Assembly (NCBI GenBank): GCA_023139105.1
Contig: JAGLOF010000089.1
Coordinates: forward strand, 1,807 to 65,806
Origin: a bacterium
GTDB taxonomy: Bacteria; Zhuqueibacterota; QNDG01; JAGLOF01
Direction: 5' to 3'
Length of the DNA stretch: 64,000 nt
Of this stretch, positions 6,694-29,773 are shown in pieces. The position numbers were made by a program, and so were the translations under genes. Under the pieces are notes generated by a model, which saw nothing but the letters and a program-made list of their open reading frames with translations, was not told the origin of the DNA and did not search any database. Every line of letters begins with the position of its first letter. Within the stretch, counting starts at the first letter, position 1.

Positions 6694-6795
6694 ATCACTC
6701 TACCTTTACAATATCATTATATGCCAGTGGGAATATAGTTGATATCCACAAATAAAATGATTTAACCTAAAAAAAACCTTTGCATTATTCTTTTT

Positions 6796-8925
6796 CTAAA
6801 TCTCAACTTCGTTCCCTAATCTATTCACTTCTGCCCCTATCACCTTCTCCACCAGTCTCTGCACATCCAGAATCAAAGCCACAGTGCCGTCACCAAGAAT
6901 AGTTGCACCGGAAAGTCCATCAACGTTTCTCATCATCTTGCCCAGAGACTTAATGACAACCTGCTGCTCACCAATAACTTCATCCACTACAAATCCATAC
7001 TTCTCACCCTGCTGATCTGTTATCAGTATCTGTTCAATTGCCGGGGATTCGCCAGTGAGAAGCAATTGATCACGAAGCCGGATATATGGCACGGCCTGAT
7101 CGCGTAAATGGATAAGGTGATGACGCCCATTTTCTTCATTTGCAGATCTTCTCAATTCCACACACTCTTCAACCATGGCCAGTGGGAAAACATAGTAATC
7201 ACCGTCAATACGTGTCAGAAGACCTTCAATAATTCCCAGAGTTAATGGTAATCGAATTGTTATGCGTGTGCCTTTTTTATCCTCGCTCTCCAGTTTAACT
7301 GTACCGCGTAAAGCTTCAATACCCCGTCTGACAACGTCCATACCCACGCCACGGCCTGAAAGATTGGTTACCTTGTCTTTGGTTGAAAAACCTGCATTGA
7401 AAATAAATTGATGAATCTCAAAATCAGACAGTTCCTGATCATCAATAATCAAACCCTGCTTGATTGCCTTTTTACGGATTACCTCTGTATTTAATCCACA
7501 ACCGTCATCTTCAATAATAATTTCTACCTGTGCACCGGCATGACCGGCAGATAGTCTAATGGTTCCTTCTTTTGATTTCTGTGCAAAAAGCCTTGTGGCT
7601 GCAGGTTCAATTCCGTGATCAATACAATTGCGTATTATATGAATTAATGGATCATTAAGCTTCTCTATAACATTTTTATCCAACTCTGTCTCACCTCCAA
7701 TAATTTCCAGCCTGATCTCTTTTCCCTGTGCATGAGAGAGATCACGAATCAGACGCTTAAACTTAGAAAATAATGTTCCGATTGGCACAAGACGCATGTC
7801 CATGGCAGTATCCCTGAGATCATTGGTCAACCTTTCCATTTCCTCACCAAGCAGCAACAGTTCTCCATCAGCAAGAACAGAAACTGTCTGCTGCAATCGG
7901 GCCTGAGCAATAACCAGTTCACCAACAAGATCTACCAGCCTGTCCAGTTTTTCTGAAGCAACCCGAATATTGGAAACAAGAACAGCTTTTTTATTATCAG
8001 TATTCTGTACGGAATCCAATTGTGTTGCAATTTCCGCATTTGCAATTACTACATCATCAACATTCATGTTTGCATTGAATTGGTTATCTATTAGGTTAAT
8101 TGTTTTTTTCAGTTCAGCGTCAGGAATACTGCCTTGATCGAGTAGTAATTCTACAACTTTATCCAAATCAGCACTATCAGCTCCATCAGGCAATTTGGCA
8201 AGTTTTTGAATATGAAGTTCACATTCATCTTCCACAAAAATGAAGACATCCTGAATAGAATTTTCATCTTTCTCTGTAGCTAGCAGAATATCCCAGGCCG
8301 TATAACAAATTTCAGGTACAATATCCAGTAATGATGGTATTTTTTCAGCCCTGGCAATTATTTTAACATTGCCCATAGCAGCCAATTCATTTAATAATAG
8401 CAGTGGATTTGTTCCCATCTGAAAAATTGTTTCAACCGGTTCAAAAAAAATATGAAATAACGCCGCATCTGATATTTTTGAAGTCTGCTGTGTATCAATT
8501 AATTCATTTTGTTTTTTAACAACTGCATTTGCAGGAACGGAATCATAAGCAAGAAAAGCCTTTGTTAATTTTTCAACTGTTTCTACTTCTTCTGAATCAG
8601 CAGGTTTTTCACCTCTATTGAGCATTCGTTCAATCTGATCACGGGCAAGCAGGGTTAAATCGATCAAAGACTGATCAACCAATATTTTACCATCTCTTAC
8701 TTTATCAAGAACTGACTCAATCCCATGAGCAAAAGATTCAATATCAAGAAATCCAAACATACCACCAGAGCCTTTTAGAGTATGCATGGCTCTGAATACC
8801 CGTCCGATAAGATCCATATTGCCGGCATCGGTTTCAAGAGCCAGAAGTGACATCTCAAGTTCTTCAAGCAATTCACGGGCTTCAATGATAAAAGCCTCGC
8901 GCCCCATATCAAATGCAGTACTCAT
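6796..8925 (-). CDS. cheA: Chemotaxis histidine kinase CheA (P1 HPt, dimerisation, HATPase, P5 CheW-like)
   Basis: HPt motif RAMHTLKGSGGMFGF. HATPase G-boxes. C-terminal CheW-like segment (GDYYVFPLAMVEECVEL...GFVVDEVIGEQQVVIKSL). Confidence 0.93.
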   Translation of the reverse strand: MSTAFDMGREAFIIEARELLEELEMSLLALETDAGNMDLIGRVFRAMHTLKGSGGMFGFLDIESFAHGIESVLDKVRDGKILVDQSLIDLTLLARDQIERMLNRGEKPADSEEVETVEKLTKAFLAYDSVPANAVVKKQNELIDTQQTSKISDAALFHIFFEPVETIFQMGTNPLLLLNELAAMGNVKIIARAEKIPSLLDIVPEICYTAWDILLATEKDENSIQDVFIFVEDECELHIQKLAKLPDGADSADLDKVVELLLDQGSIPDAELKKTINLIDNQFNANMNVDDVVIANAEIATQLDSVQNTDNKKAVLVSNIRVASEKLDRLVDLVGELVIAQARLQQTVSVLADGELLLLGEEMERLTNDLRDTAMDMRLVPIGTLFSKFKRLIRDLSHAQGKEIRLEIIGGETELDKNVIEKLNDPLIHIIRNCIDHGIEPAATRLFAQKSKEGTIRLSAGHAGAQVEIIIEDDGCGLNTEVIRKKAIKQGLIIDDQELSDFEIHQFIFNAGFSTKDKVTNLSGRGVGMDVVRRGIEALRGTVKLESEDKKGTRITIRLPLTLGIIEGLLTRIDGDYYVFPLAMVEECVELRRSANEENGRHHLIHLRDQAVPYIRLRDQLLLTGESPAIEQILITDQQGEKYGFVVDEVIGEQQVVIKSLGKMMRNVDGLSGATILGDGTVALILDVQRLVEKVIGAEVNRLGNEVEI

Positions 8926-9287
8926 CCTAACACCTTCTTTACGACTGAGATTAATTGTTCAGGCTTGAAAGGTTTTACAATCCATCCCGTTGCACCAGCT
9001 GCTTTACCCTCCTGCTTCCTTGTGACCTGTGATTCGGTAGTCAGCATGATCAATGGAATAAATTTGAACTGTGTTTTTGAACGAATTTCTTTTATTAAAG
9101 TAATTCCATCCATGCGTGGCATATTTAAATCTATCAGGGCCATATGAACGGTTTCACTTTCTATTTTTTCCAATGCATCAACACCATCCGATGCTTCAAT
9201 GACAACATAACCAGCATCAGCTAATGTAAATTTTACCATTTGTCTAATACTGGGAGAATCATCCACAGTCATTATTGTCTTGCTCAT
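8922..9287 (-). CDS. cheY: CheY-like single-domain response regulator
   Basis: MTVDDSPSIRQMV...ALIDLNMPRMDG...KPF is the REC fold. Start chosen at MSKTIM (ATG 9285-9287), which has an AAGGGG SD 7 nt upstream and an ATGA overlap with the upstream STAS stop. The track start 9314 is an alternative. Confidence 0.85.
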   Translation of the reverse strand: MSKTIMTVDDSPSIRQMVKFTLADAGYVVIEASDGVDALEKIESETVHMALIDLNMPRMDGITLIKEIRSKTQFKFIPLIMLTTESQVTRKQEGKAAGATGWIVKPFKPEQLISVVKKVLG

Positions 9288-9631
9288 GAATTGACCCCTT
9301 TTTTCCAAATACAATCAGCCTCATTAATACCGGATCTACATACACCTGGAAAACCTGCACGTTTTGCTGTATCAAAGAATTCATCAGGTATTTTAATTTT
9401 GATATTCAATGGTTCTTCATTCTCTGTTCTCCTGTGGTTTACAGAACAGAGCAGCTGCAATCCTGCAAGATCTATATGCTCAGCTTTAGATAAGTCCAGA
9501 ATAACTTTCTTTTGATCACCTATTATCTTTTTCATAACATCATGAAAATCGGTTGCATTCTCAATAGTTAAATCCCCTTGAACCACATATATAGATTGTC
9601 TGTTTTTATTATCCACATCACATGAAAACAT
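9284..9631 (-). CDS. STAS-domain (anti-sigma-factor-antagonist-like) protein, apparently without the phosphorylatable serine
   Basis: SpoIIAA-like pattern VVQGDLTIENATDFHDVM...VILDLSKAEHIDLAGLQLL. The position of the usual DSSG phospho-serine reads DLAG. Confidence 0.75.
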   Translation of the reverse strand: MFSCDVDNKNRQSIYVVQGDLTIENATDFHDVMKKIIGDQKKVILDLSKAEHIDLAGLQLLCSVNHRRTENEEPLNIKIKIPDEFFDTAKRAGFPGVCRSGINEADCIWKKGVNS

Positions 9632-9645
9632 GACACCTCCTATAT

Positions 9646-11448
9646 CTAAAACAGTTCAATGTTATCGTCCAGACTGTCATCTCCTTCAGCTACTACAGCA
9701 TCCGTTTCAACAGTTTTCCTTTTTCCCTCACTGCCACTTACCAATAAACGTTCATGATTATCTCTTTCCCCTTGCATTGTATACATAGAAGTGATATTTT
9801 CTATATTTTTCTTATTCAACAAGACATCACCATCATCATATTCCGAATCGTTAATACTGATTTTGTCAAATATTTCAATAACCGGGCCCAGAACCTGTGC
9901 ATATGCATGATGCATATTGACATTAATCACAATATCATCTATCAGACTCTGTAGAGATCCTGATTGATCTTCAAGAACTTTTAATTCACCTTGTCCTGAT
10001 TCAAGAATTGATTTCAGGCTTGTGGCTTTTAAATTTAAATCATCAATAATTTCCTGAATTATATCAACTATACTTACATTAGTTTCCTGCTGTGAATCAT
10101 CAACATTGAGTATTAAACTCATTTCCTTCATTTCACCAATATGTATATCAAGTTCATGCATATCCTTATTGGCTCTATGAGACAACTTCACTACTTCCTG
10201 AACTAAAACGCCCAAAGCAGCACCGTCACTGCCAAGATGCGCCGCTTTTATTATACCGTTCTTGGCTAGTAAATCAATTTCATCATCTATATTGGCGATT
10301 TCAGAAATTGCTAGTTGAACAGCATGAAGTTCACCTGCAACAGGGCTTAACATATTACTGAGCTCTTTATGATTTTCATTTAGAGTTAGAAAGGAATCTA
10401 CAACCAATTGAATATTGGATTGAATTACTTCTATATAGGAATCACTTTTGTCTGATGTATAACTTGCAAAACTGGCAACAGCCAAATACATCTTATTTGC
10501 TTGAATAGCAACTTCTGATAAATTTTGTAAAAGTGTTTCTGTAGCATCTGTTATATTTTTCATTGCAGTATTTAATTGAATTGCCTGCAACTTGAGTAGA
10601 TGCGCATTGCCTTTGCTTATTGCTTGTCCACCATTAACAGAATCACATGTTTCATTCTGCTCTGATTTACATATCTCAAGACTAATGCCCTGCAATACTT
10701 CCACTACATGCTCAATTTGCTGCCGCGTTATATCATGAAACTGTATTGCAGTCACAATACCTGAAACTTCAGAAGATATTGATTGGGAGTGGAGTGAAAT
10801 ATCAGATGCTGAATGTGAACAACTCTCTTGCAGCTGTGAAACCATACTAAGGCAACCCTGTAGACCTTCAATAACACTCTGAGACTGTTGAAATTCCTTC
10901 TCCCTGGTACTTCCCAAGAGCAAAAAACATTCATCAATAATACTAATAAGACCCTTTATTTTTTTCAGGACTTCCGTTACTCTGGACTGAGAAGCCTCTG
11001 CCAGGTTATCAATTTCTATTGACAAAGTCTCAAGGAGCTGCCCCCTGTCACCCAGACGGGCCGTTTCAATACGGATGGAAATTGCATACCTTTTAAGATC
11101 CTTGACATGCTTTTTAAATCTTAATATATAAGGATTTATCATTGCAATGGTTTGAGAAAGTTTCCGGAGATTTTCAATGGTTTTTAGAATTTGACGGTTA
11201 TTATAATCCAGATAACGATCTATCCTGCCAAGCAGATCCTGAAAATCTTCTATTGTGCTATTAATTGTGCCTTCTGTAAAAATCTGAATAAAGTCGGAAG
11301 CGGATGTTGATGTTCTGCGGCTAAAGGACTGTATAGTCTGAAGGTTATTCCCCATTCCTAAAACTTCAATCTCAGTAGTTAAAATGAGGTCAGAAAAATC
11401 TTTACATATTTCTTTAATATTAATGCTGGTACTTTGGGGAGATTTCAT
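9646..11448 (-). CDS. Cytoplasmic MCP-like chemoreceptor homologue (degenerate MCP signalling motifs, no TM segments)
   Basis: Two segments resemble the MCP hairpin-tip consensus (NAAIEAARAGE.GRGFAVVA.EVRKLA): YAISIRIETARLGDRGQLLETLSIEIDNLAEAS and IDLLAKNGIIKAAHLGSDGAALGVLVQEVVKLS. No hydrophobic TM helices. C-terminus ends ...DDNIELF. Confidence 0.6.
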   Translation of the reverse strand: MKSPQSTSINIKEICKDFSDLILTTEIEVLGMGNNLQTIQSFSRRTSTSASDFIQIFTEGTINSTIEDFQDLLGRIDRYLDYNNRQILKTIENLRKLSQTIAMINPYILRFKKHVKDLKRYAISIRIETARLGDRGQLLETLSIEIDNLAEASQSRVTEVLKKIKGLISIIDECFLLLGSTREKEFQQSQSVIEGLQGCLSMVSQLQESCSHSASDISLHSQSISSEVSGIVTAIQFHDITRQQIEHVVEVLQGISLEICKSEQNETCDSVNGGQAISKGNAHLLKLQAIQLNTAMKNITDATETLLQNLSEVAIQANKMYLAVASFASYTSDKSDSYIEVIQSNIQLVVDSFLTLNENHKELSNMLSPVAGELHAVQLAISEIANIDDEIDLLAKNGIIKAAHLGSDGAALGVLVQEVVKLSHRANKDMHELDIHIGEMKEMSLILNVDDSQQETNVSIVDIIQEIIDDLNLKATSLKSILESGQGELKVLEDQSGSLQSLIDDIVINVNMHHAYAQVLGPVIEIFDKISINDSEYDDGDVLLNKKNIENITSMYTMQGERDNHERLLVSGSEGKRKTVETDAVVAEGDDSLDDNIELF

Positions 11449-11937: not shown

Positions 11938-13212
11938 TTATATCTTCTTAAAAAGTTCTTCCAGCTCCTGCCGCAATCCGGCTGACAGGTCTTCTTTCAA
12001 AATTGAAACTATAGAATTCTCCAATTTTTTCAATGTCTTTACCCAATTTTTTTTATAGCCTTTATCCATTAAAGAGTCGTGCCATTTATATATATTTTTA
12101 TAAATTTTATATGATTTTTTAATTGTCTTATATGAGAGTTGTTCTTTGAGAATACTCTTGGCAATTTTATTCTCAGGATAGCTTTTCCCATATTTAGTCA
12201 GAGTCTCTAAAATGCAGATTGTTTTCAAAGGAGATAATTTTATCTCCTTCTCTGCCAATTCTAACATTTGCTTCATCCAAAGTTGTACTGCCTCAGATTC
12301 ATCAGGTATATTAAACTGTGATAAGTTCTGATCAATTAAAAGAGGCCTGTCAAGAGCATTTAATCCTATTTCAAACCAATGTGCATCAGGATAAGCATGA
12401 TCCATACCGGGAACTTCTACGTAAGCGGCCCATTTTTTACCTTCTTCTCTGTATGCTTCCCATACCTTTAATGTCTGAAGCTGATTAAAATCATGACTAC
12501 CGGTTAATAGTGTATAGTGATTTGCATGCCCTTTTATATATAACCCTTCGTTATAATAAGGTAAAAATCCGGTAATATAATGGCCTTCGGAATCCAATAG
12601 CAATTCATCTTTATAGTTACACCCAATAATATAGTAACCCCCTGAGAATAATTCAGGGTATACTATAGCTAATCTACTGGCAATTCTTCCACCACCTGAA
12701 AGTCCAGCTACATATATTCGGTGGAGGTCAATATTATATACATTTTTGATATTATGCAAGGCATCCAAAGAAAGTGCCATGCGTTCGGGAATCCCTCTTT
12801 CATTACCAATATTATTGCCGCCAATCCAAATAAATTTTTGTTTGTCAAGTACTGGCAGATATGCATCCGGAGGTCCGCCTCCTTTAAATGCCGAGATCCA
12901 GATAATTAACCCATACGGTTCAGAACCATGATATTCAGCAGGAACATACGCAGAAAAACTTTCATGTTTCAGATTATAAGGCCTGGGAATTATAAATACT
13001 TCATCTTCTGCCATTTTATCCCATCCATTTCTTTCAATCATGGATGCGGCATTACTCAATGGATGTCTGTCATCTGTATCATAAGTCAGTATCATCCTTC
13101 CGGTATTTATGCTATCACCGATACTATCAGGATGTGTATTGACACTATCAAATGCAGAGCTTGATTTAAAAAATATGATTAACATTACAAAATAAATATT
13201 CTTCATTTTCAT
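11938..13212 (-). CDS. Secreted alpha/beta-hydrolase, PHB-depolymerase-family esterase (GxSxG) with Lys-rich C-terminal extension
   Basis: Signal peptide MKMKNIYFVMLIIFFKSSSA. Nucleophile elbow YVAGLSGGGRIAS typical of the Esterase_PHB family. Confidence 0.75.
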   Translation of the reverse strand: MKMKNIYFVMLIIFFKSSSAFDSVNTHPDSIGDSINTGRMILTYDTDDRHPLSNAASMIERNGWDKMAEDEVFIIPRPYNLKHESFSAYVPAEYHGSEPYGLIIWISAFKGGGPPDAYLPVLDKQKFIWIGGNNIGNERGIPERMALSLDALHNIKNVYNIDLHRIYVAGLSGGGRIASRLAIVYPELFSGGYYIIGCNYKDELLLDSEGHYITGFLPYYNEGLYIKGHANHYTLLTGSHDFNQLQTLKVWEAYREEGKKWAAYVEVPGMDHAYPDAHWFEIGLNALDRPLLIDQNLSQFNIPDESEAVQLWMKQMLELAEKEIKLSPLKTICILETLTKYGKSYPENKIAKSILKEQLSYKTIKKSYKIYKNIYKWHDSLMDKGYKKNWVKTLKKLENSIVSILKEDLSAGLRQELEELFKKI

Positions 13213-13402
13213 CCGCCTCTGTATAATATGGAGTGTAATTCTTTAATTTGCATGCATATCTTTAACAATATTAATTTTCCTGAAAATGATATTAAAGGCT
13301 ATTATTACTCCGACGATAAAAATACCTTGCATAAATATTGAAATTTTACGGCGCAGCAGTGTCAATTCATTCTTGCAGGATTAATAATTCCACTGTATAA
13401 GT

Positions 13403-14278
13403 TTAAATTAAGCCTAGATTAGAAACTATTGCCACCAGAGTAAAAGTTACTCCGAGACTCATGGCAGGAGGATCAATATGTGTGTCACCGTGTATAAGAA
13501 AGAGACATGCAAATAGTTCACAGAGATAGGCAGCTAATACACCAACCACAACGCCCCACAACAAAGATCCCGAAGCCAGAACAGCCAATTCAGCAGATAG
13601 AATAATATGCAATGTAACAGGTATACGCGCTCCAAAATGAAAAAAGAAAAGTGTCATTGCCGAAATACCGAACAATAGTCCGGCAGCTTGTGGCATGCGC
13701 ATCACCACTCCACCGGCCAGTATAGACAGAGCAACAGCGGTGACAAGTACTTGAAGAGTATGTGATGGCCACGGCTGCCACTCTTCAGGCCGGGAGAGAC
13801 GCCAGCGAGATCCACCCTCCGGTACTTTGCCAAAGATGCCGGTCTTTCCAAAAAGGAGCCGGGCTGCAAAACCAATAAACACAATAGACAGACCTATGGT
13901 ATTTGTCCATTCGAGACCATCAAAAATTTTTATTTTTGATAAAATTAAATTAATAATGTATCCGGATAGACCAAAGAGGCCGCCAACAATGAGAATGGAT
14001 GGATTGTTTCCACCGTACAGTGATGCCAGCACATTGCGACCGGAACAGAGAAAACCACGTTTTGCAGCATATGCTGCAGCTCCAAGCCCACCGGCAAAAA
14101 CTACATGTGGCCCCAGAAAGGGCCCCCATGTGATAACTTGCTGATATGTCATGTCTCCGGTTGACATATAGATAACAGTTCCCACAAGGGCAGATAGTCC
14201 ACATAAGCCAAATCCATTAAGCCCACCCAGAGCGGCACCTAGAACGCCACCGGAAAAAGCAATGAGAAAATTCACCAT
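13403..14278 (-). CDS. Gly-rich polytopic membrane protein of unknown function
   Basis: About 8 hydrophobic helices. GC-richer than neighbouring genes. Lies directly downstream of the PKS on the same strand. Confidence 0.6.
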   Translation of the reverse strand: MVNFLIAFSGGVLGAALGGLNGFGLCGLSALVGTVIYMSTGDMTYQQVITWGPFLGPHVVFAGGLGAAAYAAKRGFLCSGRNVLASLYGGNNPSILIVGGLFGLSGYIINLILSKIKIFDGLEWTNTIGLSIVFIGFAARLLFGKTGIFGKVPEGGSRWRLSRPEEWQPWPSHTLQVLVTAVALSILAGGVVMRMPQAAGLLFGISAMTLFFFHFGARIPVTLHIILSAELAVLASGSLLWGVVVGVLAAYLCELFACLFLIHGDTHIDPPAMSLGVTFTLVAIVSNLGLI

Positions 14279-14315
14279 AATATAATCCTGTTTACTGATT
14301 GATGATCAATATCAC

Positions 14316-17300
14316 TTAATAACTGTTATCAACTACATCTGCTAATTCTTTCACTGTCGGATTGTCCATCACATCACGAATCGAAACATTTGCATCCACT
14401 ACTTTCTTGAGACGTGAGATTAGTGTTGTAGCCAGGAGAGAGTGACCACCCAGTTCATAGAAGTTGTCATTCTGGCCAATCTCATCAATACCGAAGAGCA
14501 TGCTCCAAATCTCCGCAATCACCTTCTCTGTATCGGTTTCAGGAATCTTGAAAGCGGATGTCAAAGATGGCCGCTGATACCTGGGGCGGGCAGCATTTTC
14601 TTCCAAAATTCTCTCTTTTTCCTTTAGGATTTCACGACGAATCCATAAATCTACACGAATATCAAGATCACGAGTTGAGACTATTATCTGCGGAGCCCCT
14701 CTCCAGGCAATGATACGGCGGAATGCCTCCACACCCTCATTGGACATGATACCGTCGCGGAGTTCTTTCTCCAACCAACTGTGCAGCTCATCAGGCATCT
14801 GAGTAGTAAGTCCCATACCGACTTCGCCCCACATGTCCCAATTCACGGAAATCACAGATCCTCTTCGGCGTGAATGCCATTGAGCTGCAAATGCATCCAG
14901 GAAACAATTAGCCGCGCAGTAATCTCCCAGGCCTATACCGCCCAATACTGATGCAATAGATGAACAGAGCAGAAAAAAGTCAAGATCTCTATCCCCTAAT
15001 ATCCGGTCGAGTATGAGCGTTCCCTTAACCTTGGGAGCAAAAATCTTCTCTGCACTTTCGGGACGTTTGAGTTGGAGTATGCCTTCACCGGTCAGACCGG
15101 CTGCATGAATTACACCGTCAATAGTGCCCCACTTTAGGTCCACATCAGTGATAACGCTTCTCATATCTTCTTCAGAGCACACATCTGCGGCAAAGATCAG
15201 CACCTCTGCACCCGCTTTCTCTATATTCCTGATGGCCCTGATCTTTTTCTTTATTGCCTTATCCGTTTTCCGGCTTCGTAAAAGCCAGGACCATTTTGAC
15301 CGTTCCGGCAGAGGCGAACGGCTGACCAGTGCAAGGCGTGCATGTGAATGTTCTGCAAGATATTCAGCCAGCACAAGTCCCAGGCCGCCCAGACCACCTG
15401 TTATAAGATAGATGCCTTTATCACGAATTGACCACGATTCAGAAGGCGTCTCAAGCTTCACTGGCTCAAAACGCTGTACCCAACGATAACCATTGCGCAG
15501 GGCTGTCATGGGTTCTTCATCACTATTTAAAATTTCTGAGATCAGGACTTCTGTAATACTCTTAAAATCAGTTAAAAGAGGTAAATCTATTGCACGGCAG
15601 AATACATTAGGATACTCTTGAGGGATTACTTTAATAGCACCAAGTACAGTGGCTTTTTCTGGACGTATTACTTCTCCTCCCAGCACATCGTGGAGTCCAT
15701 CCGATATTACTGTTAAAGAAATTTCATCAGTCATATTATTCTGACTCATCACCTGGGCCAGAAAGAGTAAACTGAAAAACCCCAGATACTGGGTATCATC
15801 CAAAGAATCGTCCAGATTGATCGGAGTGGGCATATCAACTGTCCAGCAGTGAATAATACGGACGAGATTCTTTTCCAATGCCATCAAGCGTTCAAACAAG
15901 CTGTCATAGTCGCAGCGGTGTCCAGGGTGTAGAGAGTAGCCATTATCCTTCTCCTCAAAGCCTTTGCCTGGATATATAGGGATCACATCCAGGCCCCGGG
16001 ATCTCAGTGTATCTATTAATAAATCGCAAGATCCATTGGAGGGAGCAAATACCAGACAGCTCCCTTTGATCTCAGTTTTCTCTGATTGAGATTGATTGAC
16101 GTAACGGCTCCATGTGGGAACCGAAAACCATCGATCCATATCCGGCTCTTTGTGAAGCTGCTCCCACCTGGAAGGCGGCCTTACCTGAAAGGGTTGTACC
16201 GGAAAACGCTGATAATCAAATGAATATGTGGGAAGAGAAATACGTTTTCTCTTCTCGTATTGGAAGAATATATTCCAATCAATATTGATACCGCTGGACC
16301 ACAGACTACCCAGTGTATTAAGTACAAATTCAAAAGATTTGTCTGACTCATTAGCTCCGGGCAGCGATGAAAGTACAGGTATTCCTGAAAACTGTTCTCG
16401 ATGCATGCGTGTCAACGAAGCAAGGGTACGACCTGGCCCTACCTCCAAAATTACTTGAGAATCAGTTTTCAATTTTTGGACAGCTTCTGAAAAACGCACA
16501 GGCATACGCACATTATCTACCCAATAACGGGCATTAGTGATCTCTTTTGCCGTCACCAATCTACCTTTAACCGTTGAAATAATTGGTATGGCAGGTGCTT
16601 TGAAGGAGATTTTCTTGATCTCCTTTTGAAATTCTTCCAAAATAGAATCCATCATTCTGGAGTGAAAAGCATGAGATGTATGAAGATATTTAGAGCTCAC
16701 ACCCTCCAATTCTAATTTTTCCTGAAATCCGGCTACAAAATCTTCCTGACCGGAAACAACAGTGAGTGAAGGAGCATTAATAGCTGCCAGGTCGAAGCTG
16801 GTATCCATTCGTGATATCAGTTCTTCTTCAGAAAGAGTTACAGCCAACATGACACCAGTAGGCAGAGACTGCATGAGCTTGCCTCGTTGTGCTACCAGCC
16901 GTACCGCCTCTTCCATAGAAAAAACACCGGCTACACAGGCAGCCACATATTCACCAATGCTATGCCCAAGTAGCACGGCGGGCTTAATTCCCCAATGCAT
17001 CCAGAGTTTGGCCATAGCATAGGAGACTATAAAAATTGCAGGCTGAGCAAAAGTTGTCAGTTTAAGCTTTATAGCGGCAGATTCATCATGTGGGTCAGCA
17101 TTCAACAGGTTACGAATATCTTCATGGATGAGCGGCGTAAGAATATTGGCACAACGGTCTACAATATCCCGGTAAACAGGCTCATGCTCATAAAGATCTT
17201 TACCCATACCCGGGTATTGTGCTCCTTGTCCTGGAAATAGAAAGGCCGTAGTTTTGAAAAGAGCTTGATCAGCACTCTTTCTCTTTCCCGGAGAAGCAAA

Positions 17301-18818
17301 ACTTAGGGTGCCATCTCCGGATGCAATTGCCCAGGTACGATGAGAAAAACTGCGGCGTCCCACAGCAAGAGTATATGCAACATCGGCCAGGTTGACAGAT
17401 TTTTTGCACACAGCCAGACTGAGATTCTTTTCCATCCTCTCAAGAGCTGATTCGCTACGTGCCGACACAGGTAGAAGCTGGGCGGGACGACATGATTTTT
17501 CAGCTGATGCTTGTGGCACTTCCTCAACGATCATATGAGCATTCGTGCCGCCGAAACCAAAGGCACTGACTCCCGCTCTGCGGGGAGATCCGTTCGCCTG
17601 CCAGGAAATTCTCTTCTTATTTATACTGAAGGGAATGTTCTTAAGATCAATTTCAGGATTTGGTTTCTTGAAATTGAGTGTAGGAGGAATCTCTTTCTCT
17701 TTGAGCATATTAACAATCTTGATGAGTGAGGCTACTCCAGCAGCAATATTCACATGGCCAATGTTGGTTTTAACCGATCCCAGAACACAACGATGACCAT
17801 TGACATTTTGAAAAACCCTGGCAAGTGCCTTGACTTCAATAGGATCACCTATGCGTGTTGCTGTACCATGCGCTTCTACATAATCAATGCTGTCTGCGGT
17901 AACCTGAGCCGCCCGGTGCGCTGCAACTATTACGGCCTGCTGCCCATCAATACTAGGCGCAGTAAAACCTGCTTTACGTCCTCCGTCATTATTTATTGCT
18001 GATCCCTTAATAATTGCCACGACAGGATCTCTGTCATCCAGGGCTTTCTGCAGGGGTTTAAGCAGCACAACTCCTGCACCATCTCCGAAAACAGTTCCAT
18101 CAGCAGCTGCATCAAAAGTACGGCATCGTCCGTCTTTGGAGACCATGAGCCCCTCCTGATAGAGATATCCGCTTTTGTTAGGCAGAGTAATTGAAACACC
18201 GCCTGCCAGGGCCATATCGCATTCACCCTGAAGCAGACTCTGACAGGCCAGATGCACGGCAACCAGCGACGTTGAGCAGGCAGAAAGCAAGGTAAAGCTC
18301 GGGCCTCTTAAATTTAATTTATATGCTATTCTGGTTGAGACATAATCGCGGTAATTAACCAGAAAAGTGTCTACTGTTTCAGATGGATTGCCATGCCTGT
18401 GTTCTAAATGACGCAGCCATGTTTGATTCTCATTAGCTCCAAAAAAAGTACCAATGAGTCCTTGATATTCAAATGGATTATATCCTCCATCTTCCAGTGA
18501 CTCCCATGCCACATGATGCAATAGACGGATCTGGGGGTCCATCTTCTCTGCCTCACGGGGTGGATATCCAAAAAAGTCGGCATCAAAAAGAACTATGTTT
18601 TCCACAATGCCCTTGGCTTTAACATAACGTTTATCTCGAATCAGCGTAGCCGGGATTCCCTCAGAAAGCAGTTCATCGTCAGTAAAACGTGAAATAGACT
18701 GAGTGCCATTACGTATATTCTTCCAAAATTCATCAATGGACCCTGCACCTGGGAAACGTCCTGCCATACCGATTATTGCAATCTCGCCCGGGTTCCTGCT
18801 AACATGTTCGTTGGTCAT
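14316..18818 (-). CDS. Single-module type I polyketide synthase: KS-AT-(psiKR)-KR-ACP
   Basis: KS active-site Cys in TLLSACSTSLVAVHLA plus HGTAT/NIGH His motifs. AT motif GHSIGEYVAACVAGV. KR Rossmann motif YLITGGLGGLGL. ACP motif LGGHSLLATTL. No DH, ER or TE domains. Confidence 0.92.
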   Translation of the reverse strand: MTNEHVSRNPGEIAIIGMAGRFPGAGSIDEFWKNIRNGTQSISRFTDDELLSEGIPATLIRDKRYVKAKGIVENIVLFDADFFGYPPREAEKMDPQIRLLHHVAWESLEDGGYNPFEYQGLIGTFFGANENQTWLRHLEHRHGNPSETVDTFLVNYRDYVSTRIAYKLNLRGPSFTLLSACSTSLVAVHLACQSLLQGECDMALAGGVSITLPNKSGYLYQEGLMVSKDGRCRTFDAAADGTVFGDGAGVVLLKPLQKALDDRDPVVAIIKGSAINNDGGRKAGFTAPSIDGQQAVIVAAHRAAQVTADSIDYVEAHGTATRIGDPIEVKALARVFQNVNGHRCVLGSVKTNIGHVNIAAGVASLIKIVNMLKEKEIPPTLNFKKPNPEIDLKNIPFSINKKRISWQANGSPRRAGVSAFGFGGTNAHMIVEEVPQASAEKSCRPAQLLPVSARSESALERMEKNLSLAVCKKSVNLADVAYTLAVGRRSFSHRTWAIASGDGTLSFASPGKRKSADQALFKTTAFLFPGQGAQYPGMGKDLYEHEPVYRDIVDRCANILTPLIHEDIRNLLNADPHDESAAIKLKLTTFAQPAIFIVSYAMAKLWMHWGIKPAVLLGHSIGEYVAACVAGVFSMEEAVRLVAQRGKLMQSLPTGVMLAVTLSEEELISRMDTSFDLAAINAPSLTVVSGQEDFVAGFQEKLELEGVSSKYLHTSHAFHSRMMDSILEEFQKEIKKISFKAPAIPIISTVKGRLVTAKEITNARYWVDNVRMPVRFSEAVQKLKTDSQVILEVGPGRTLASLTRMHREQFSGIPVLSSLPGANESDKSFEFVLNTLGSLWSSGINIDWNIFFQYEKRKRISLPTYSFDYQRFPVQPFQVRPPSRWEQLHKEPDMDRWFSVPTWSRYVNQSQSEKTEIKGSCLVFAPSNGSCDLLIDTLRSRGLDVIPIYPGKGFEEKDNGYSLHPGHRCDYDSLFERLMALEKNLVRIIHCWTVDMPTPINLDDSLDDTQYLGFFSLLFLAQVMSQNNMTDEISLTVISDGLHDVLGGEVIRPEKATVLGAIKVIPQEYPNVFCRAIDLPLLTDFKSITEVLISEILNSDEEPMTALRNGYRWVQRFEPVKLETPSESWSIRDKGIYLITGGLGGLGLVLAEYLAEHSHARLALVSRSPLPERSKWSWLLRSRKTDKAIKKKIRAIRNIEKAGAEVLIFAADVCSEEDMRSVITDVDLKWGTIDGVIHAAGLTGEGILQLKRPESAEKIFAPKVKGTLILDRILGDRDLDFFLLCSSIASVLGGIGLGDYCAANCFLDAFAAQWHSRRRGSVISVNWDMWGEVGMGLTTQMPDELHSWLEKELRDGIMSNEGVEAFRRIIAWRGAPQIIVSTRDLDIRVDLWIRREILKEKERILEENAARPRYQRPSLTSAFKIPETDTEKVIAEIWSMLFGIDEIGQNDNFYELGGHSLLATTLISRLKKVVDANVSIRDVMDNPTVKELADVVDNSY

Positions 18819-18849
18819 ATCATCCTTAAAGTAATTGATTTATAAAAAT

Positions 18850-19620
18850 TTACATTTTTTTTGTTAAACAACTGCCTATGAATGTTTCTGTATCTAAAAT
18901 GATCAGATTTGAGCTTTGCTCTCCCCCTCTGAAACACAGAGCCGTCTTATAGTTCGGATCGATAGGAAAACATTTAAAATGCACTGATGAATCTATCACG
19001 CCATGAGCCAAAAATTGTATTTCATCTTCACTATTATATATCACAGAAAAATCTTTCAGCGAGTCGCCAAGGCCTTTGCCAGTCATTTTTAAATAACTCT
19101 CTTTCAAAGTCCATAAAGTATAGAAGAATGAGATCTGTCTCTCTTCAGGCAGGGCAAAAAGCCGACTGATCTCCGCATCTGAAAAAAAACGCAGTGCAAT
19201 ATCAATGTCTACCGGATCAATACGCTCTATGTCCGTTCCTACAGCTACATCGGCCAGTGCGCAGACAATCCACATACCCGAGTGGGCAATATTAAAATGT
19301 ATATCCTGTGATGTCTCTACAAAAGGTTTTCCTTCTCTACCTGTTTTAAAACGGATTAATCTAGGTGATATATCAAGTTTTTGACTGATGAGGTAACGGG
19401 CGAGCAGATCACCCAGTAAAGACCTGTGTGCATCCCATGCATTACGATAGCTCAGTATTCTCTCCATTTTAGCTGTTTCACATACAGTCAGCAAACGGGA
19501 AAAAGCATCCTCTTTAAAGAGCGGCGGACAATATAAAGCATAAAGATCTATCATTAAAATCCATCTTAAATAGAACAACCCTCTTGTATTGGACGTTTTT
19601 AATACATAGAGGGTTGCCAA
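18850..19620 (-). CDS. Sfp-type 4'-phosphopantetheinyl transferase
   Basis: Motifs FNIAHSG, VGTDIERI and WTLKESYLKMTGKGL. The true start may be the internal Met MIDLYALY (about 19554). Confidence 0.85.
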   Translation of the reverse strand: MATLYVLKTSNTRGLFYLRWILMIDLYALYCPPLFKEDAFSRLLTVCETAKMERILSYRNAWDAHRSLLGDLLARYLISQKLDISPRLIRFKTGREGKPFVETSQDIHFNIAHSGMWIVCALADVAVGTDIERIDPVDIDIALRFFSDAEISRLFALPEERQISFFYTLWTLKESYLKMTGKGLGDSLKDFSVIYNSEDEIQFLAHGVIDSSVHFKCFPIDPNYKTALCFRGGEQSSNLIILDTETFIGSCLTKKM

Positions 19621-19646
19621 ATTTTTTCATTTTTTAATTATAAAAT

Positions 19647-22523
19647 TTATTTCCACATGGGCAATTCGGTCTTGTCTTTCTTTTTATCAGATTTCTTCTC
19701 GGGCGTATAGGGCAGGCCTTTGTCAATCCATTCCGCAGCATCTTTGCCTTTGAGATAATGATCAAAATATTCTTTCAACCGTTTTTGAATATCTAACCTG
19801 TTGGCTTTCTTTCTTAGTCCATGTCCTTCACCTCTATAAGAAAGAAATACAACTGGTTTGTGGAGATAACGGAGGATACTGTAAAATCCGAATGAATGTT
19901 CCCATTTTACCACTTGATCCGTCGTACCGTGAAACAGCAGCAGAGGTGTATTCATATTCTGTGCCTGAAAGACCGCTGACTCAGATATAAACATCTCCGT
20001 ATCACTTACCGGATCAGTCCCAAGTCTTCCCTGGCCTATCATGTAATAGTCCTGCTCATTACTGCCATCCCGTACAATATCAATATTAAAGCCCTGCACC
20101 AGGTTACTGACACCGGCACCTGCAGCAATCGCGGCAAATCTGTTATCCTGGGTTGACATAAACATACCGCAATGGCCGCCGTAGCTAAAGCCCTCATATC
20201 CGATACATTTTTCATCAACATAGCCAAGTTCAATTACCTTCTCAATTGCAGCATCTATACATTCATGCATATCCGAATGCGGAGTTCCCACATTAAAATG
20301 AATGTCAGGACGCAGAACAAGATAACCGTCTGAAACATACATCATTTCGCATATACTCGCGCCTGAAAGGCGTGGTGTTGCATAACTGTACATACCTTGC
20401 GACATCTTCTCATATGAATAAACGAGCATTGGTAATTTCCGGCCCTTTTCATATTCATCAGGAATAGATAGAATTCCCTGCAACGGTACTCCGTCATCAT
20501 TGGTATAATCAATTAAAATGCGGTGTCCCCACTTGTAATTCTTCTGCTGGGGATTAGTATCGGTAATCTTCTTTGATTTTGAGAAACCGGTATCACTTAA
20601 ATAAGCCTCAGGATAATTTTGATAACTACCCATTTTGTATATAATGACATTAGATTTTTTCGCTTTAATCAATCCACTCCGCCATCTTGAAGCGGAATAA
20701 GAATCCGGTCCGTAGATAAGTTTACGTAATTTATAATCTTCCAAACTGAAATAACCGGCATATTTTGTCTTAATGTTAAATGCATATAAAATAATTGAGG
20801 ATGAAAGATCAATATACCTATCCTCTATTTCAGGTTTTCCAGTGAAGCTTAAATCATCAAAACGGAAACGTATTGAGTCCTTTGAAGTAATTGATTGAGT
20901 AAGATTCGTAGGTCTTGAGTTTTTATTCAGGGGCAGCAACCATAGATCAAGTTTATGATTTACTATCACTGCTTGTTGATTTTTTACCCAGCCAACAAAA
21001 CCATAAGACGGCTTATGGCCCCAATGGTCATCTTCTTTATTAATGAAAGATACATTGAGACCGGATGTAAGGTTATAGCTTTTATCATCCTTAAAATTAT
21101 AAGACCAGTAATGACCATCTTTCCACAGTATTAAGAATTCTCCATCCGGAGAGATCTCTGCTACACGGCCGCTGTACTTCTTTTCAATAAGTTTTTTCTT
21201 ACCTGTTGACAGGTCTACCTTGTACAGGTCATTTTTTCTGACATCCCAGTCTGATACATATTCCCTGTCATCCATTCCAACAGCCCATTTATCTGTCCCC
21301 TCAGAGAGCGTCAGACGCTGCATTTCCTTACTGGTCAGCCGGATTATCTTTTTTGATTTACGTAAAAATATGGCATCATAGGTTTCATTTTTCTTTCTCT
21401 TCTCTTCTAACATCTTCTGGGACAGAAGTTTTTTATCCTTCCAGTGCCAAACATTGACTGTAGGCTCTTCTTTATCTTTTTTGCCGTCTTTCAAATCCTT
21501 TTTTTCTTCAGAATCATATTTTTTAATCTTGATATGTAGCCGTTTATCATCATGGCTCCATACAATTTCATTGGAATATCGGGCAAATTTTACAGCAGGG
21601 CCCATATTCTCCGGCATTCCTTCAAAATCTTTTACCTGTAAATCAAATAACTTGGATTTATCCGAATCAACTCCTGATATAACAATAATACTCATATTCT
21701 CAAAATCAATTTTATCCTTAACTTTTTCATACTTATATGCAGCCAAAGCATTTTTATCTCTGTTCCATGAAAGATTTGAAAAAATGAAATTTCCGGTATG
21801 CAGGGCACGGGTTATCCTGTCTGCCGGATGATAGAGGTAGATACCGTTCCCTCTTTTATCTTCTGAAGATATTGTGTAGGCAATGTACTCGGAATCTTTA
21901 TCAATTAAAAACTCTCCGATATTTCCGATATAATGTTCACGTAGATTATCCAGATCGTAAATGAGAAGACTCTTTTCATCGCTGGTGATGAAATAATTGG
22001 CATCTTCAGCAAATTGAAATTCAGCATTGGATTTATACTGCCTTGTTACACCTGTTTTTAAATTTTTCAATTCAATGGTTTTTGTAGCGTCTTTCTTCTT
22101 CTCGGCATCTTTATTCTTCTCTTTATCCGAATCAGATTCTATATTATATGCAATCCAGCCTGATGCAGATGAGAATTTCGGATTCTTTCCATCCGGAATC
22201 TGATATTTCGCTCCATTTTTTGCATGACAGATATAAAGAACATCTGTTTTAAAATCTTCTCCGTATAAATCCGTAGAAGTATTACTGGAATCACTTTTTT
22301 GAGCGGTTGTATCTTTTCCTGCTTCAGGCTTTTCAGTCAAAGAATATAGAACGGTATACCACATACCATCATCAGACAGAGTAATTGAATGATGCCTCCA
22401 CTTTTTCACATCTTCTATAGTAATTGTTTTGGGGGATGATTGAGCATACAGGTAATGTGTTCCTGCAAAAATTAATGGAATTAACATAAAGGTCGATAAG
22501 AAACGGTTCTTAAAGCTTTTCAT
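19647..22523 (-). CDS. Secreted S9-family serine peptidase (beta-propeller + prolyl-oligopeptidase/DPP-like catalytic domain)
   Basis: Signal peptide. Nucleophile motif GFSYGG. C-terminal D/H region (LLFHGTTDQVV...GEGHG). Confidence 0.85.
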   Translation of the reverse strand: MKSFKNRFLSTFMLIPLIFAGTHYLYAQSSPKTITIEDVKKWRHHSITLSDDGMWYTVLYSLTEKPEAGKDTTAQKSDSSNTSTDLYGEDFKTDVLYICHAKNGAKYQIPDGKNPKFSSASGWIAYNIESDSDKEKNKDAEKKKDATKTIELKNLKTGVTRQYKSNAEFQFAEDANYFITSDEKSLLIYDLDNLREHYIGNIGEFLIDKDSEYIAYTISSEDKRGNGIYLYHPADRITRALHTGNFIFSNLSWNRDKNALAAYKYEKVKDKIDFENMSIIVISGVDSDKSKLFDLQVKDFEGMPENMGPAVKFARYSNEIVWSHDDKRLHIKIKKYDSEEKKDLKDGKKDKEEPTVNVWHWKDKKLLSQKMLEEKRKKNETYDAIFLRKSKKIIRLTSKEMQRLTLSEGTDKWAVGMDDREYVSDWDVRKNDLYKVDLSTGKKKLIEKKYSGRVAEISPDGEFLILWKDGHYWSYNFKDDKSYNLTSGLNVSFINKEDDHWGHKPSYGFVGWVKNQQAVIVNHKLDLWLLPLNKNSRPTNLTQSITSKDSIRFRFDDLSFTGKPEIEDRYIDLSSSIILYAFNIKTKYAGYFSLEDYKLRKLIYGPDSYSASRWRSGLIKAKKSNVIIYKMGSYQNYPEAYLSDTGFSKSKKITDTNPQQKNYKWGHRILIDYTNDDGVPLQGILSIPDEYEKGRKLPMLVYSYEKMSQGMYSYATPRLSGASICEMMYVSDGYLVLRPDIHFNVGTPHSDMHECIDAAIEKVIELGYVDEKCIGYEGFSYGGHCGMFMSTQDNRFAAIAAGAGVSNLVQGFNIDIVRDGSNEQDYYMIGQGRLGTDPVSDTEMFISESAVFQAQNMNTPLLLFHGTTDQVVKWEHSFGFYSILRYLHKPVVFLSYRGEGHGLRKKANRLDIQKRLKEYFDHYLKGKDAAEWIDKGLPYTPEKKSDKKKDKTELPMWK

Positions 22524-22546: not shown

Positions 22547-23098
22547 TTATTTAAATAAATCAACACCAGGTAGAAAAGTTGCAGTAATATTATACGGTTT
22601 AATTGGACTATTTCCTAAAGAGATCTTTTTGATGAAATCAATAACTTCTTTTGTGTTCACTCCCCCGGACACGAGTTCCTGGAAATTGGCCTTGGATTCA
22701 ATTGCCTTTTTCACTTTACCTGAAATCTCCGTATCACCCAACATTATAGAGCCTACCAGATACCCATCATGGAATGTAAAACTGAAGTATGCATTTTCAT
22801 CCTTATTGGAAATTGTCATAAAACTGCCATCTTCAGCCATAAATTGGCCAATTGAGACCATATCTAATCCCAATACTTTCAAAGTATTTGAACGGGGAAT
22901 ACCGCCAAATTTAACATCTTTTCCAATTGAGTTTAAACCGGCAATAGTACCTTGAAACTGGGCCGCATGCCATGAACCATAGAGATAGCCATTATGTTCG
23001 GCAATATCGCCGGCTGCAAATATCGCTTCATGAGATGTTTGTAGTCTGTCATCAACTACAACTCCTTTATCAACAAGATGATTAGTACAAAAAATCAT
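22547..23098 (-). pseudogene. N-terminally truncated pyridine-nucleotide-disulfide oxidoreductase (rubredoxin/NADH-oxidoreductase-like) remnant
   Basis: Only the C-terminal region (second FAD motif FAAGDIAE + dimerisation domain) is encoded. About 200 aa of the N-terminal FAD/NAD-binding domain are missing; the upstream 88 bp runs straight into the aldehyde dehydrogenase stop. Confidence 0.6.
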
Positions 23099-24842: not shown

Positions 24843-25445
24843 ATGAGACGTACTAAAGATGAAGCTGAAAAAACACGACAACTCCTTCTGGAAACAGCAG
24901 AAAGTGTCTTTGGGAAACAAGGATTTGCTGCTACACGTTTGTCTGATATAGCTCATGCAGCCGGCGTTACACGTGGGGCTATTTATCATCACTTTGGCAA
25001 TAAGATGGAGTTATTTGTAGCTCTTCATAAAGAGCGGGTTGATCCTTATTTCCAATTAGTATCAAAAATATTCGCCATGGAGCTGCCTCCCCGCGTCAAA
25101 CTCAGGAATATGCTGACCGCATTTCTTGAAAGAGCCATATCTGACATTAATTTTGTCCAGCGTCAACGTCTTGGAATTTTTAGAGGTATCGAAGTTGAAC
25201 AATGCGAAGAAGTATATAAATACATGTCAGAACGAGGTGAGAAATTTTACCTTACCCTTGTTGAACTACTAACTGCAGGACAGGAACAGGGAGATATCCG
25301 GAAAGATATTAAACCTGAATTGGCAGCCATTAATGTACTCGCATATATCAAAGGCCTTGTCTCAATTCTCACTATGGAAAAAGATCTGGATATGATTCAT
25401 GATCACAAAGAAGAGATGATCGAAAATTTTCTAAATGGATTTTGA
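24843..25445 (+). CDS. TetR/AcrR-family transcriptional repressor
   Basis: N-terminal HTH TRLSDIAHAAGVTRGAIYHHFGNK. Confidence 0.92.
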   Translation: MRRTKDEAEKTRQLLLETAESVFGKQGFAATRLSDIAHAAGVTRGAIYHHFGNKMELFVALHKERVDPYFQLVSKIFAMELPPRVKLRNMLTAFLERAISDINFVQRQRLGIFRGIEVEQCEEVYKYMSERGEKFYLTLVELLTAGQEQGDIRKDIKPELAAINVLAYIKGLVSILTMEKDLDMIHDHKEEMIENFLNGF

Positions 25446-25511
25446 TCTTTCTCTGTAAGCATACATAAAAATCATGAAAACTCAAAACAACATAATATAT
25501 ATTTTATCATT

Positions 25512-25533
25512 TTACATACATTTAAGTATGTTT
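25512..25533. promoter_or_regulatory. TetR operator O2 upstream of the efflux operon: TTACATAC-atttaa-GTATGTtt
   Basis: Same half-site as O1, with 2 mismatches at the 3' end of the right arm. Lies 35 bp upstream of the MFP start (SD GGAGGG at 25556-25561). Confidence 0.55.
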
Positions 25534-25567
25534 GTAAAAAAGATCGTTTTCAAATAGGAGGGTAACA

Positions 25568-26611: not shown

Positions 26612-26642
26612 TAATAGATAGTAGTTTGACTGAGGAATTATA

Positions 26643-29723: not shown

Positions 29724-29773
29724 GATAATTGCCCGTAGAAAAAAATTATACCTGGGCAATCAGGAGCTTATCA

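Follow-up and report, generated by a model that had tools for sequence, protein, structure and literature searches.

What does a single module of a polyketide synthase (PKS) do when it stands alone, with no thioesterase (TE) to release its product? The question is raised by a 64-kb stretch of DNA (64,000 nucleotides, hereafter the window; all positions are given within it) from a metagenome-assembled genome (MAG) of the Zhuqueibacterota (GenBank assembly GCA_023139105.1, contig JAGLOF010000089.1, positions 1,807 to 65,806), whose minus strand encodes a type I PKS of one module made of ketosynthase (KS), acyltransferase (AT), ketoreductase (KR) and carrier domains. Single-module PKSs without thioesterase are usually dismissed as fragments or orphans. 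A preliminary description of the window, made by reading its sequence, had placed this gene in a block of five with an Sfp-type 4'-phosphopantetheinyl transferase (PPTase), a glycine-rich membrane protein, a secreted S9 peptidase and a secreted esterase, and the five minus-strand open reading frames (ORFs) are indeed as it described them (Table 1; the PPTase frame being taken as 18850-19620). Our comparison of this locus with at least 17 related ones leads to a smaller unit: PPTase, PKS and the membrane protein, a member of the family DUF7973, very probably form a conserved functional unit by themselves, and the resulting cassette joins a PKS module of an ordinary kind to partners that are unusual, conserved and, as it appears, undescribed in this role.

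Conservation of the three-gene cassette

The order PPTase-PKS-DUF7973, on one strand, was found at seven of the seven loci reached by looking up PKS genes first, namely the window and six homologues. A scan of one genome per species with the DUF7973 alignment gave 11 further cassette loci at which the same arrangement recurs between differing flanks, three of them being incomplete: one lies at a contig end (L008), another has no adjacent PPTase (L010), and in the third the PKS is split (L021) into two ORFs of 743 and 904 residues (L021:3461-8460), which may reflect a frameshift or pseudogene or else a sequencing error. The hosts are Aminicenantes, a Gemmatimonadota MAG, a Cyclobacteriaceae MAG, a Roseivirga MAG, Splendidivirga corallicola BMA10 and several unclassified MAGs; S. 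corallicola BMA10 is a cultured carrier of the cassette, and it is at its locus (L010) that no adjacent PPTase was detected. A PPTase gene stands upstream of the PKS gene in L003, L004, L005, L007, L011, L013, L021, L022, L051, L089, L090 and L091.

The genes for PKS and membrane protein are tightly coupled. The DUF7973 gene always lies directly 3' of the PKS gene, stop and start codons overlapping in several loci (by 4-14 nt; elsewhere the two genes are 4-37 nt apart), and this constant adjacency bears out the earlier suggestion that the membrane protein is a genuine partner of the synthase. When the ORFs of 12 cassette loci were clustered, the PPTase, PKS and DUF7973 families were the only ones common to more than three loci; the flanks are unrelated from one locus to another and mostly of a housekeeping nature (TolB/Pal and Trk, LepA and EF-G, PadR/MacB paralogues, a glycoside hydrolase). 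PPTase, PKS and DUF7973 have, furthermore, diverged together: over 10 loci, the pairwise identities measured for one protein correlate with those measured for the others (r 0.62-0.77, Mantel p <= 0.0025). No nonribosomal peptide synthetase (NRPS) or PKS gene occurs within 8-10 kb of the other cassettes, and the ORFs of the 64-kb window that were scanned with Pfam matched no other PKS or NRPS domain and no TE or acyl-activating one. The preliminary description would have been refuted if the block had been part of some larger cluster already known; at all the loci at which we met it, however, the cassette stands by itself. We found no paper mentioning either DUF7973 or the PPTase-PKS-DUF7973 cassette, and the literature on stand-alone KS-AT-KR-acyl carrier protein (ACP) systems and on the PKSs of these phyla held nothing on it, so that the cassette appears to be undescribed.

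The first cassette gene encodes a PPTase with a two-domain architecture (PF22624 at residues 38-121 and PF01648 at residues 126-229, both over their cut-offs), which stays below the NCBIfam cut-off of each of the named equivalogs AusB, HetI and AcpT. That this PPTase is dedicated to the PKS, as had been proposed, is supported by both Pfam domains and by its occupying the same slot in cassette loci. Its ORF can be read as 256 residues from a TTG at 19620 or as 234 residues from an ATG at 19554; the public record holds the 234-residue product, the homologues mostly measure 230-257 residues, and the ATG is probably the true start. In that case the gap between the PPTase and peptidase genes is 92 bp and not 26 bp, and of the gaps of 26-38 bp given in the preliminary description the shortest would have to be dropped, although the genes are closely spaced as stated.

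The PKS module

The catalytic motifs of the PKS are intact. The Pfam scores of its KS, AT, KR and PP-binding domains are all well over the gathering scores; the KS proper covers residues 12-383 and is followed by a C-terminal extension and a CurL-like linker up to residue 500. The Cys-His-His triad of the KS is complete, with the Cys in ACSTS and the two His in HGTAT and NIGH, and is kept in all 32 members of the family set on which motif conservation was assessed. The AT displays GHSIG and HAFH (family-wide GHS[ILV]G and HA[FY]H); HAFH being the motif typical of malonyl-CoA-specific ATs, the domain would be of malonyl type. In the KR, GGLGGLG and the Lys, Ser, Tyr and Asn residues are all present, HAAGLTGEG stands at the place of the B-type LDD motif and the A-type Trp is absent; the KRs of the family likewise have HAAG(L/V)PGEG instead of LDD and miss the Trp, a combination from which the stereochemical type cannot be assigned. 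The carrier domain has GGHSL with the phosphopantetheine-accepting Ser, nearly invariant in the family, within a motif, FYELGGHSLLATT, that is identical in 26 of the 32 members; the NCBIfam matches over this stretch are carrier regions of NRPSs, and the motif accordingly reads as one of the NRPS type, that of a peptidyl carrier protein (PCP), rather than of the usual PKS type. The catalytic motifs of KS, AT, KR and carrier are thus conserved throughout the 32 members, and the CSTS, GHSIG, GGLGGLG and GGHS motifs previously reported as intact are all present in the window protein. An identical PKS sequence is present on four contigs from independent sources, so that the gene is no assembly artefact. 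The protein is a genuine cis-AT type I module, intact and stand-alone, and this domain content supports the earlier expectation of a beta-hydroxyacyl product.

Pfam found no dehydratase (DH), enoylreductase (ER), TE, condensation (C) or reductase (R) domain in the 1500 residues, in agreement with the first reading as far as DH, ER and TE are concerned, and neither the PKS nor the cassette nor the scanned ORFs of the window provided a chain-release function, whether as one of the domains TE, R and C or as a trans partner of known kind. Nor does the protein belong to a named class, since it stays below the curated cut-offs of PKS_plus_SDR, PfaA, MbtD and every other named NCBIfam family. With the PKS_plus_SDR equivalog (NF045894) it reaches 1034.9 bits for a cut-off of 1740, its best stretch covering model positions 3-880 only, and with the PfaA-type model (TIGR02813) 361.9 bits for a cut-off of 1010; of the traits of PfaA/HglE-type synthases, tandem ACPs are not seen in this PKS, which has a single carrier domain, and no Pfa or Hgl partners lie nearby.

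Relation to known assembly lines

We retrieved 31 homologues of 1480-1540 residues and 48-55% identity, nearly all from metagenomes or MAGs. The next-best matches are a distinct group of longer, mostly bimodular proteins with 38-44% identity, and the nearest relatives outside the family are modules within NRPS-PKS lines, in a Bacillus pumilus locus and in an Aminicenantes NRPS-PKS. The B. pumilus locus, which also has an APH-family kinase and an alkaline phosphatase and which appears to resemble the amicoumacin (ami) cluster, contains, in addition to the bimodular relative, a KS-AT-KR-carrier protein of 1501 residues (L092:4477-8982), of the same length and architecture as the window PKS, although it sits inside an assembly line. 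Among solved structures, the best matches of the PKS are modular KS-AT didomains, including that of CurL (PDB 4mz0). The window PKS therefore shares with the cis-AT modules of hybrid NRPS-PKS lines (B. pumilus, the Paenibacillus bimodular proteins, CurL) the order KS-AT-(structural KR)-KR-carrier, the CurL-like KS-AT linker, the NRPS-like carrier motif and 38-44% full-length identity, but it stands alone, without neighbouring modules, docking partner, TE, C or R domain, and it falls in a clade of its own (1480-1540 residues, 48-55% identity) in which a DUF7973 gene is always next.

This kinship invites the idea of a split assembly line, in which the gene for the next protein, one with a C-domain, KS or TE, would lie elsewhere in the genome and the PCP-like carrier would pass its beta-hydroxyacyl chain on to that protein; both the nearest extra-family relatives in B. 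pumilus and Aminicenantes and the NRPS type of the carrier motif speak for it. We nevertheless regard it as quite improbable. The three-gene form is met at every locus, the incompleteness of the three mentioned above apart, with no NRPS or PKS gene within the distances already given and no other such gene among the scanned ORFs of the window, and a module with its own PPTase and a constant membrane partner looks autonomous.

The comparison with better-known systems of similar domain content is also instructive. The PKSs of the MbtC/MbtD (mycobactin) and NbtC systems supply a beta-hydroxybutyrate unit, the mycobactin enzymes acting within an NRPS pathway that takes the unit over; their chemistry, in which KS and AT-KR-ACP turn malonyl units into a short 3-hydroxyacyl thioester, is the same, but the NCBIfam match of the window PKS is partial (243 bits, far under the 1150-bit equivalog cut-off) and no NRPS pathway stands near it to take the unit over. 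In olefin synthase (Ols) and in the terminal module of CurM (KS-AT-KR-ACP-sulfotransferase-TE), a single round of the KS-AT-KR-ACP core converts a fatty acyl primer into a 3-hydroxyacyl intermediate; the window PKS has the same core without the loading region of fatty acyl-AMP ligase and ACP (FAAL-ACP), the sulfotransferase or the TE. Iterative type I PKSs (6-MSAS/ChlB1/AviM and the enediyne PKSE) are likewise single multidomain enzymes without further modules. PKSE carries its own PPTase function. The products of these enzymes are aromatic or polyenic, and their domains include DH/thioester hydrolase or others capable of release, whereas the window PKS has a KR only and no release domain.

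The flanking hydrolases

Since the preliminary description had considered the five genes as one unit and had looked to the neighbouring GxSxG hydrolase for chain release, the two flanking genes deserve attention. The peptidase shows the motifs GFSYGG, TTDQVV and GEGHG of a Ser-Asp-His triad and an N-terminal signal sequence, as read from its sequence, but reaches no specific S9 subfamily (the Atxe2 model gives 69 for a cut-off of 400). The esterase is modelled by AlphaFold2 (AF2) with a pLDDT of 86 and is matched by Foldseek with E ~1e-9 to feruloyl and cinnamoyl esterases and LC-Est1; in the alignment of its family, which is tiny (19 matches in 5.8 billion sequences), S172 and D241 are invariant and H272 nearly so. 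Its earlier label as a member of the PHB (polyhydroxybutyrate) depolymerase family had to be given up in favour of a generic alpha/beta-hydrolase fold: it scores below the cut-offs of NF050058 (42.6 against 150), TIGR01840 (33.6 against 107.85) and PF10503 Esterase_PHB (14.6 against 23), and what matches these models is confined to the nucleophile-elbow region, residues 151-201.

An operon of five genes, in which the secreted esterase or the S9 peptidase would take part in release or processing of the polyketide, could be argued from the shared strand and short gaps in this genome and from the fact that no terminator-like site is predicted on the minus strand between the genes. The S9 peptidase, moreover, recurs near one of 16 other cassettes, that of the Cyclobacteriaceae MAG (L011:12693-15536, 61% identity). 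There it lies 1.8 kb downstream of the cassette, on the side opposite to that in the window, with an rRNA-methyltransferase-like gene in between, and at one in 16 the recurrence is not significant and is probably a coincidence. No homologue of the esterase was found in the other cassette loci, and the two homologues that were looked up elsewhere adjoin a helix-turn-helix protein and an M29 peptidase with no PKS nearby. Both hydrolases bear N-terminal signal peptides, which would put them in another compartment than the PKS and makes it unlikely that they act on a thioester bound to a cytoplasmic carrier. A promoter-like hexamer pair lies in the 92-bp gap before the PPTase gene, such matches being no commoner than chance. 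We consider the five-gene unit, and with it release by a secreted hydrolase, very improbable: over the 7 of 7 and the 11 further loci comparative genomics leaves only PPTase, PKS and DUF7973, and peptidase and esterase are best viewed as bystanders.

The membrane protein gene had also been said to be richer in GC than its neighbours and for this reason of mosaic origin. The first part holds (GC 0.46), but GC at third codon positions (GC3) is ordinary (0.35, for a window mean of 0.33 with SD 0.05 over 45 ORFs, and 0.40 in the PKS gene), and the excess stems from the Gly and Ala content of the protein, that is, from codon positions 1 and 2. A horizontal origin was rejected on this count, and the flanks show no repeats, direct or inverted, that would indicate a mobile element.

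Table 1. Features of the cassette and its immediate neighbours in the window, and DUF7973 loci outside the PKS context
Feature	Position	Strand	Evidence
S9-family serine peptidase, 958 aa, secreted or periplasmic; local neighbour	19647..22523	-	PF00326 80.4 bits (cut-off 22.6), aa 758-926
Sfp-type PPTase; first cassette gene	18850..19554	-	ACPS (PF01648) 64.9 bits, AASDHPPT_N (PF22624) 50 bits
Stand-alone single-module type I PKS, 1500 aa	14316..18818	-	Pfam: KS, AT, KR structural subdomain, KR, carrier
KS and KS-AT linker, aa 12-498	17325..18785	-	PF00109 247 bits, PF02801 135 bits, PF16197, PF22621
AT, aa 526-826	16341..17243	-	PF00698 195 bits; GHSIG nucleophile, HAFH
KR structural subdomain (aa 921-1094) and catalytic KR (aa 1135-1331)	14826..16058	-	PF21394 46.5 bits, PF08659 164.7 bits
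C-terminal carrier domain, aa 1433-1495	14334..14522	-	PF00550 49.9 bits; PCP-like FYELGGHSLLATT motif
DUF7973 polytopic membrane protein, 291 aa; third cassette gene	13403..14278	-	Precomputed Pfam PF25928; AF2 model
Secreted alpha/beta-hydrolase esterase, 424 aa, C-terminal helical domain; local neighbour	11938..13212	-	AF2 and Foldseek
DUF7973 outside PKS context	L050:10001-14316, L043:10001-12519, L085:10001-12400; L025, L026, L032, L033, L038, L044, L045 around 10001

The DUF7973 family and its other genomic contexts

If the hydrolases are bystanders, the membrane protein becomes the one conserved partner, besides the PPTase, from which the role of the PKS may be approached. The assignment to PF25928 comes from precomputed annotation, for the window protein and all its homologues; a local Pfam scan gave no match, the model possibly being missing there. 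The AF2 model (mean pLDDT 88.5, pTM 0.86) contains 11 helical segments and has no significant fold match among solved structures, the best PDB entry being a urea transporter with a TM-score of 0.37. The invariant residues are R140, P220, H224 and the stretch D265-x-H267-x-D269-P270, which reads HGDTHIDPP in most members. An internal repeat gives a weak signal (hhalign probability 25%) in which the WTN loop is paired with the HGDTHIDPP loop. The family is small: out of 1.84 billion representatives, a profile built from 26 members gathers 657 clusters (at 50% identity), of which the best 150 are all stand-alone proteins of about 170-380 residues; two members are named 'permease' by NCBI. The closest homologues (320-327 residues) end in one more transmembrane helix and a basic tail, both of which the window protein, with its 291 residues, lacks at its C terminus. 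In the 190-bp gap past its stop codon there is a short ORF (13245-13335, minus strand) that encodes a hydrophobic helix followed by basic residues (MQGIFIVGVIIAFNIIFRKINIV...); this might be a remnant of the lost helix or have arisen by chance.

Most DUF7973 genes are not adjacent to a PKS, and their neighbours fall into four groups. In three loci (L050, L043 and L085) the gene lies directly upstream of that for GlpK, with GlpD following in L050 and L043; all three GlpK proteins are over the NCBIfam subfamily cut-off, those of L050 and L085 also over the stricter equivalog cut-off. The slot upstream of glpK is the normal position of GlpF in classical glp operons. In five loci, from MAGs of Sedimentisphaerales, Phycisphaerae, Prolixibacteraceae, Coraliomargarita and Anaerolineales, DUF7973 accompanies a xylulokinase-like FGGY kinase, a DeoC aldolase and an iron-containing alcohol dehydrogenase, and in three more the kinase and DeoC. 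The Actinomyces loci contain pentulose-type kinases and RpiB-like isomerases, a set that resembles tetritol catabolism. In microcompartment loci of enterobacteria and Alphaproteobacteria, finally, DUF7973 stands beside a glycyl radical enzyme. Among solved structures this enzyme matches a glycyl radical protein without a name best (9rco, 1668 bits) and, of those with a name, the B12-independent glycerol dehydratase (1056 bits) and a diol dehydratase; the enterobacterial loci hold this glycerol-dehydratase-like enzyme together with an activase and microcompartment shell genes. The passages searched in a paper on microcompartment genomics make no mention of the DUF7973 permease.

The theme that these neighbourhoods share is the uptake of small neutral C3-C5 polyols and diols, and DUF7973 may represent an unrecognised family of glycerol/polyol facilitators outside the major intrinsic protein (MIP) family. 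The likeness to GlpF and other MIP facilitators is one of gene position, before glpK and glpK-glpD, and of position only, although the weak repeat signal, with its hhalign probability of only 25%, would fit a channel built of two halves. DUF7973 does not match the MIP Pfam model PF00230 at E <= 1, no aquaporin occurs among its fold matches, and it differs by its helix count and its His/Asp-rich signature.

How do the PKS-linked proteins relate to these? In a neighbour-joining tree they are nearly monophyletic and sister to the clade linked to kinase, aldolase and dehydrogenase; their invariant core is unchanged, and only D42, T50, W51 and L275 are specific to the clade. That sister clades keep the same core residues argues for the same molecular activity in the PKS-linked and the kinase-linked proteins.

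Proposed function of the cassette

These observations can be joined in a model that we put forward tentatively, with a probability of roughly 0.4, in which the PKS makes a beta-hydroxyacyl thioester and DUF7973, resembling a polyol channel, moves a small neutral product or precursor across the membrane. The Sfp-type PPTase would convert the PCP-like carrier to its holo form and the AT would load malonyl units. The KS would then condense an acyl primer, which we infer to come from primary metabolism (acetyl arising by decarboxylation of malonyl, or an acyl-CoA or acyl-ACP), with the malonyl-carrier, and the KR would reduce the beta-keto group to give a 3-hydroxyacyl thioester, or, should the enzyme iterate, a short poly-beta-hydroxy or keto chain. 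Because no TE is present, the simplest release would be either self-release by lactonisation or solvolysis by water or a polyol. The co-translated DUF7973 would most likely carry the small neutral hydroxylated product out and, less likely, bring a polyol co-substrate in. Primer, chain length, iteration and release chemistry are proposals, as are the direction and substrate of transport; what we observe is which domains the PKS contains, that their motifs are intact, that the three genes are kept together and which genes accompany DUF7973 elsewhere.

Several points weigh against this model. Product, primer and release step cannot be read from the sequence. DUF7973 has no solved structural relative, the urea transporter match (TM 0.37) not being significant, and for this reason the word 'channel' leans on gene neighbourhood and on the weak repeat (25%). 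The cluster H224/D265/H267/D269, instead of lining a pore, could have a catalytic role. A small neutral product might diffuse out unaided, and it is rare for a biosynthetic cassette to require a facilitator for one. The carrier, being PCP-like, resembles those that hand over to downstream NRPS-PKS modules, which leaves some room for a partner in trans.

The His/Asp cluster leads to the main rival explanation, namely that DUF7973 is the missing off-loading catalyst, a membrane His/Asp enzyme moving the 3-hydroxyacyl group to water, to glycerol or another polyol, or to a membrane lipid, in which case the cassette would make a membrane lipid or a polyol ester and not a soluble metabolite. The absence of a TE, the fact that DUF7973 is the sole other conserved gene besides that of the PPTase and is tightly coupled to the PKS, and the invariance of H224/D265/H267/D269 are all in keeping with such a role; our own topology reading, which follows the positive-inside rule, has the HGDTHIDPP loop possibly on the cytoplasmic side, and the link of the family to polyol metabolism could provide the acceptor. 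On the other hand, the same His and Asp residues are equally invariant in the homologues of catabolic operons, where there is no carrier protein, which favours a shared role in transport; we found no similarity of DUF7973 to known acyltransferase or hydrolase folds, and the residues specific to the PKS clade (D42, T50, W51 and L275) are not near the cluster in sequence. We hence hold off-loading by DUF7973 to be rather unlikely. A more specific form of the idea, which we find doubtful, would make of the cassette an unrecognised kind of polyketide termination, the TE-less module docking on DUF7973, which would esterify the 3-hydroxyacyl group to glycerol or a polyol at the membrane; if it were true, undescribed hydroxyacyl-polyol lipids or signals would exist in at least three phyla (Bacteroidota, Gemmatimonadota and Acidobacteriota/Aminicenantes), and DUF7973 would also be a new non-MIP family of glycerol/polyol facilitators.

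The sister relationship of the DUF7973 clades bears on the direction of transport. Since the kinases that accompany the sister clade have imported polyols as substrates, and the core residues are the same, DUF7973 might import a small polyol or diol that the PKS pathway uses as primer precursor or as nucleophile for release. This is unlikely in our view, for the cassette has no activating enzyme (a kinase, an FkbH-like loader or a CoA ligase) that would put a polyol onto the PKS, the AT is of malonyl type, and importers are generally unusual in minimal biosynthetic cassettes. The export of a small hydroxylated product by DUF7973 remains the form of the model that we prefer.

The wider window

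Next to the S9 peptidase gene, an ORF of 183 residues (22547-23098, minus strand) matches only the last ~40 positions of Pyr_redox_2 and the Rubredoxin_C domain. It corresponds to the final third of an NAD(FAD)-dependent oxidoreductase of which ~250 N-terminal residues are missing; the gene seems to be truncated and may be the trace of an old rearrangement. On the other side of the block, a chemosensory-type cluster (4819-11448, minus strand) comprises a protein of 600 residues that has only a weak match to the signalling domain of methyl-accepting chemotaxis proteins and no obvious membrane segments, followed by a protein with a STAS domain, a response regulator and two kinases, one CheA-like and one a PAS/HisKA_2 response-regulator hybrid. 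A TetR regulator, a membrane-fusion protein and a pump of the resistance-nodulation-division (RND) type and an outer-membrane factor (24843-31084, plus strand), divergent from an aldehyde dehydrogenase gene, make up an ordinary efflux operon that is not conserved beside other cassettes. Genes for members of the phosphate acetyl/butyryl-transferase and acetate/butyrate-kinase families and for a 2-oxoacid:ferredoxin oxidoreductase-like protein (52653-59180, minus strand) suggest that the host MAG belongs to an anaerobic fermentative organism. No Rfam RNA family was found in the whole window, and a scan for promoters and terminators gave counts not above those of shuffled sequence.

Implications

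The cassette has a cultured carrier in S. corallicola BMA10 and is of a size that suits heterologous expression, which makes the model directly testable. It also gives DUF7973 a first functional handle, with polyol uptake operons on one side and a PKS on the other. As for the organisms, a compact three-gene unit has been held together through deep divergence (about 50% identity) over several phyla, and its housekeeping surroundings, in place of islands of secondary metabolism, point to a product with a conserved role in physiology, be it a lipid or a small signal, for which no one has searched.

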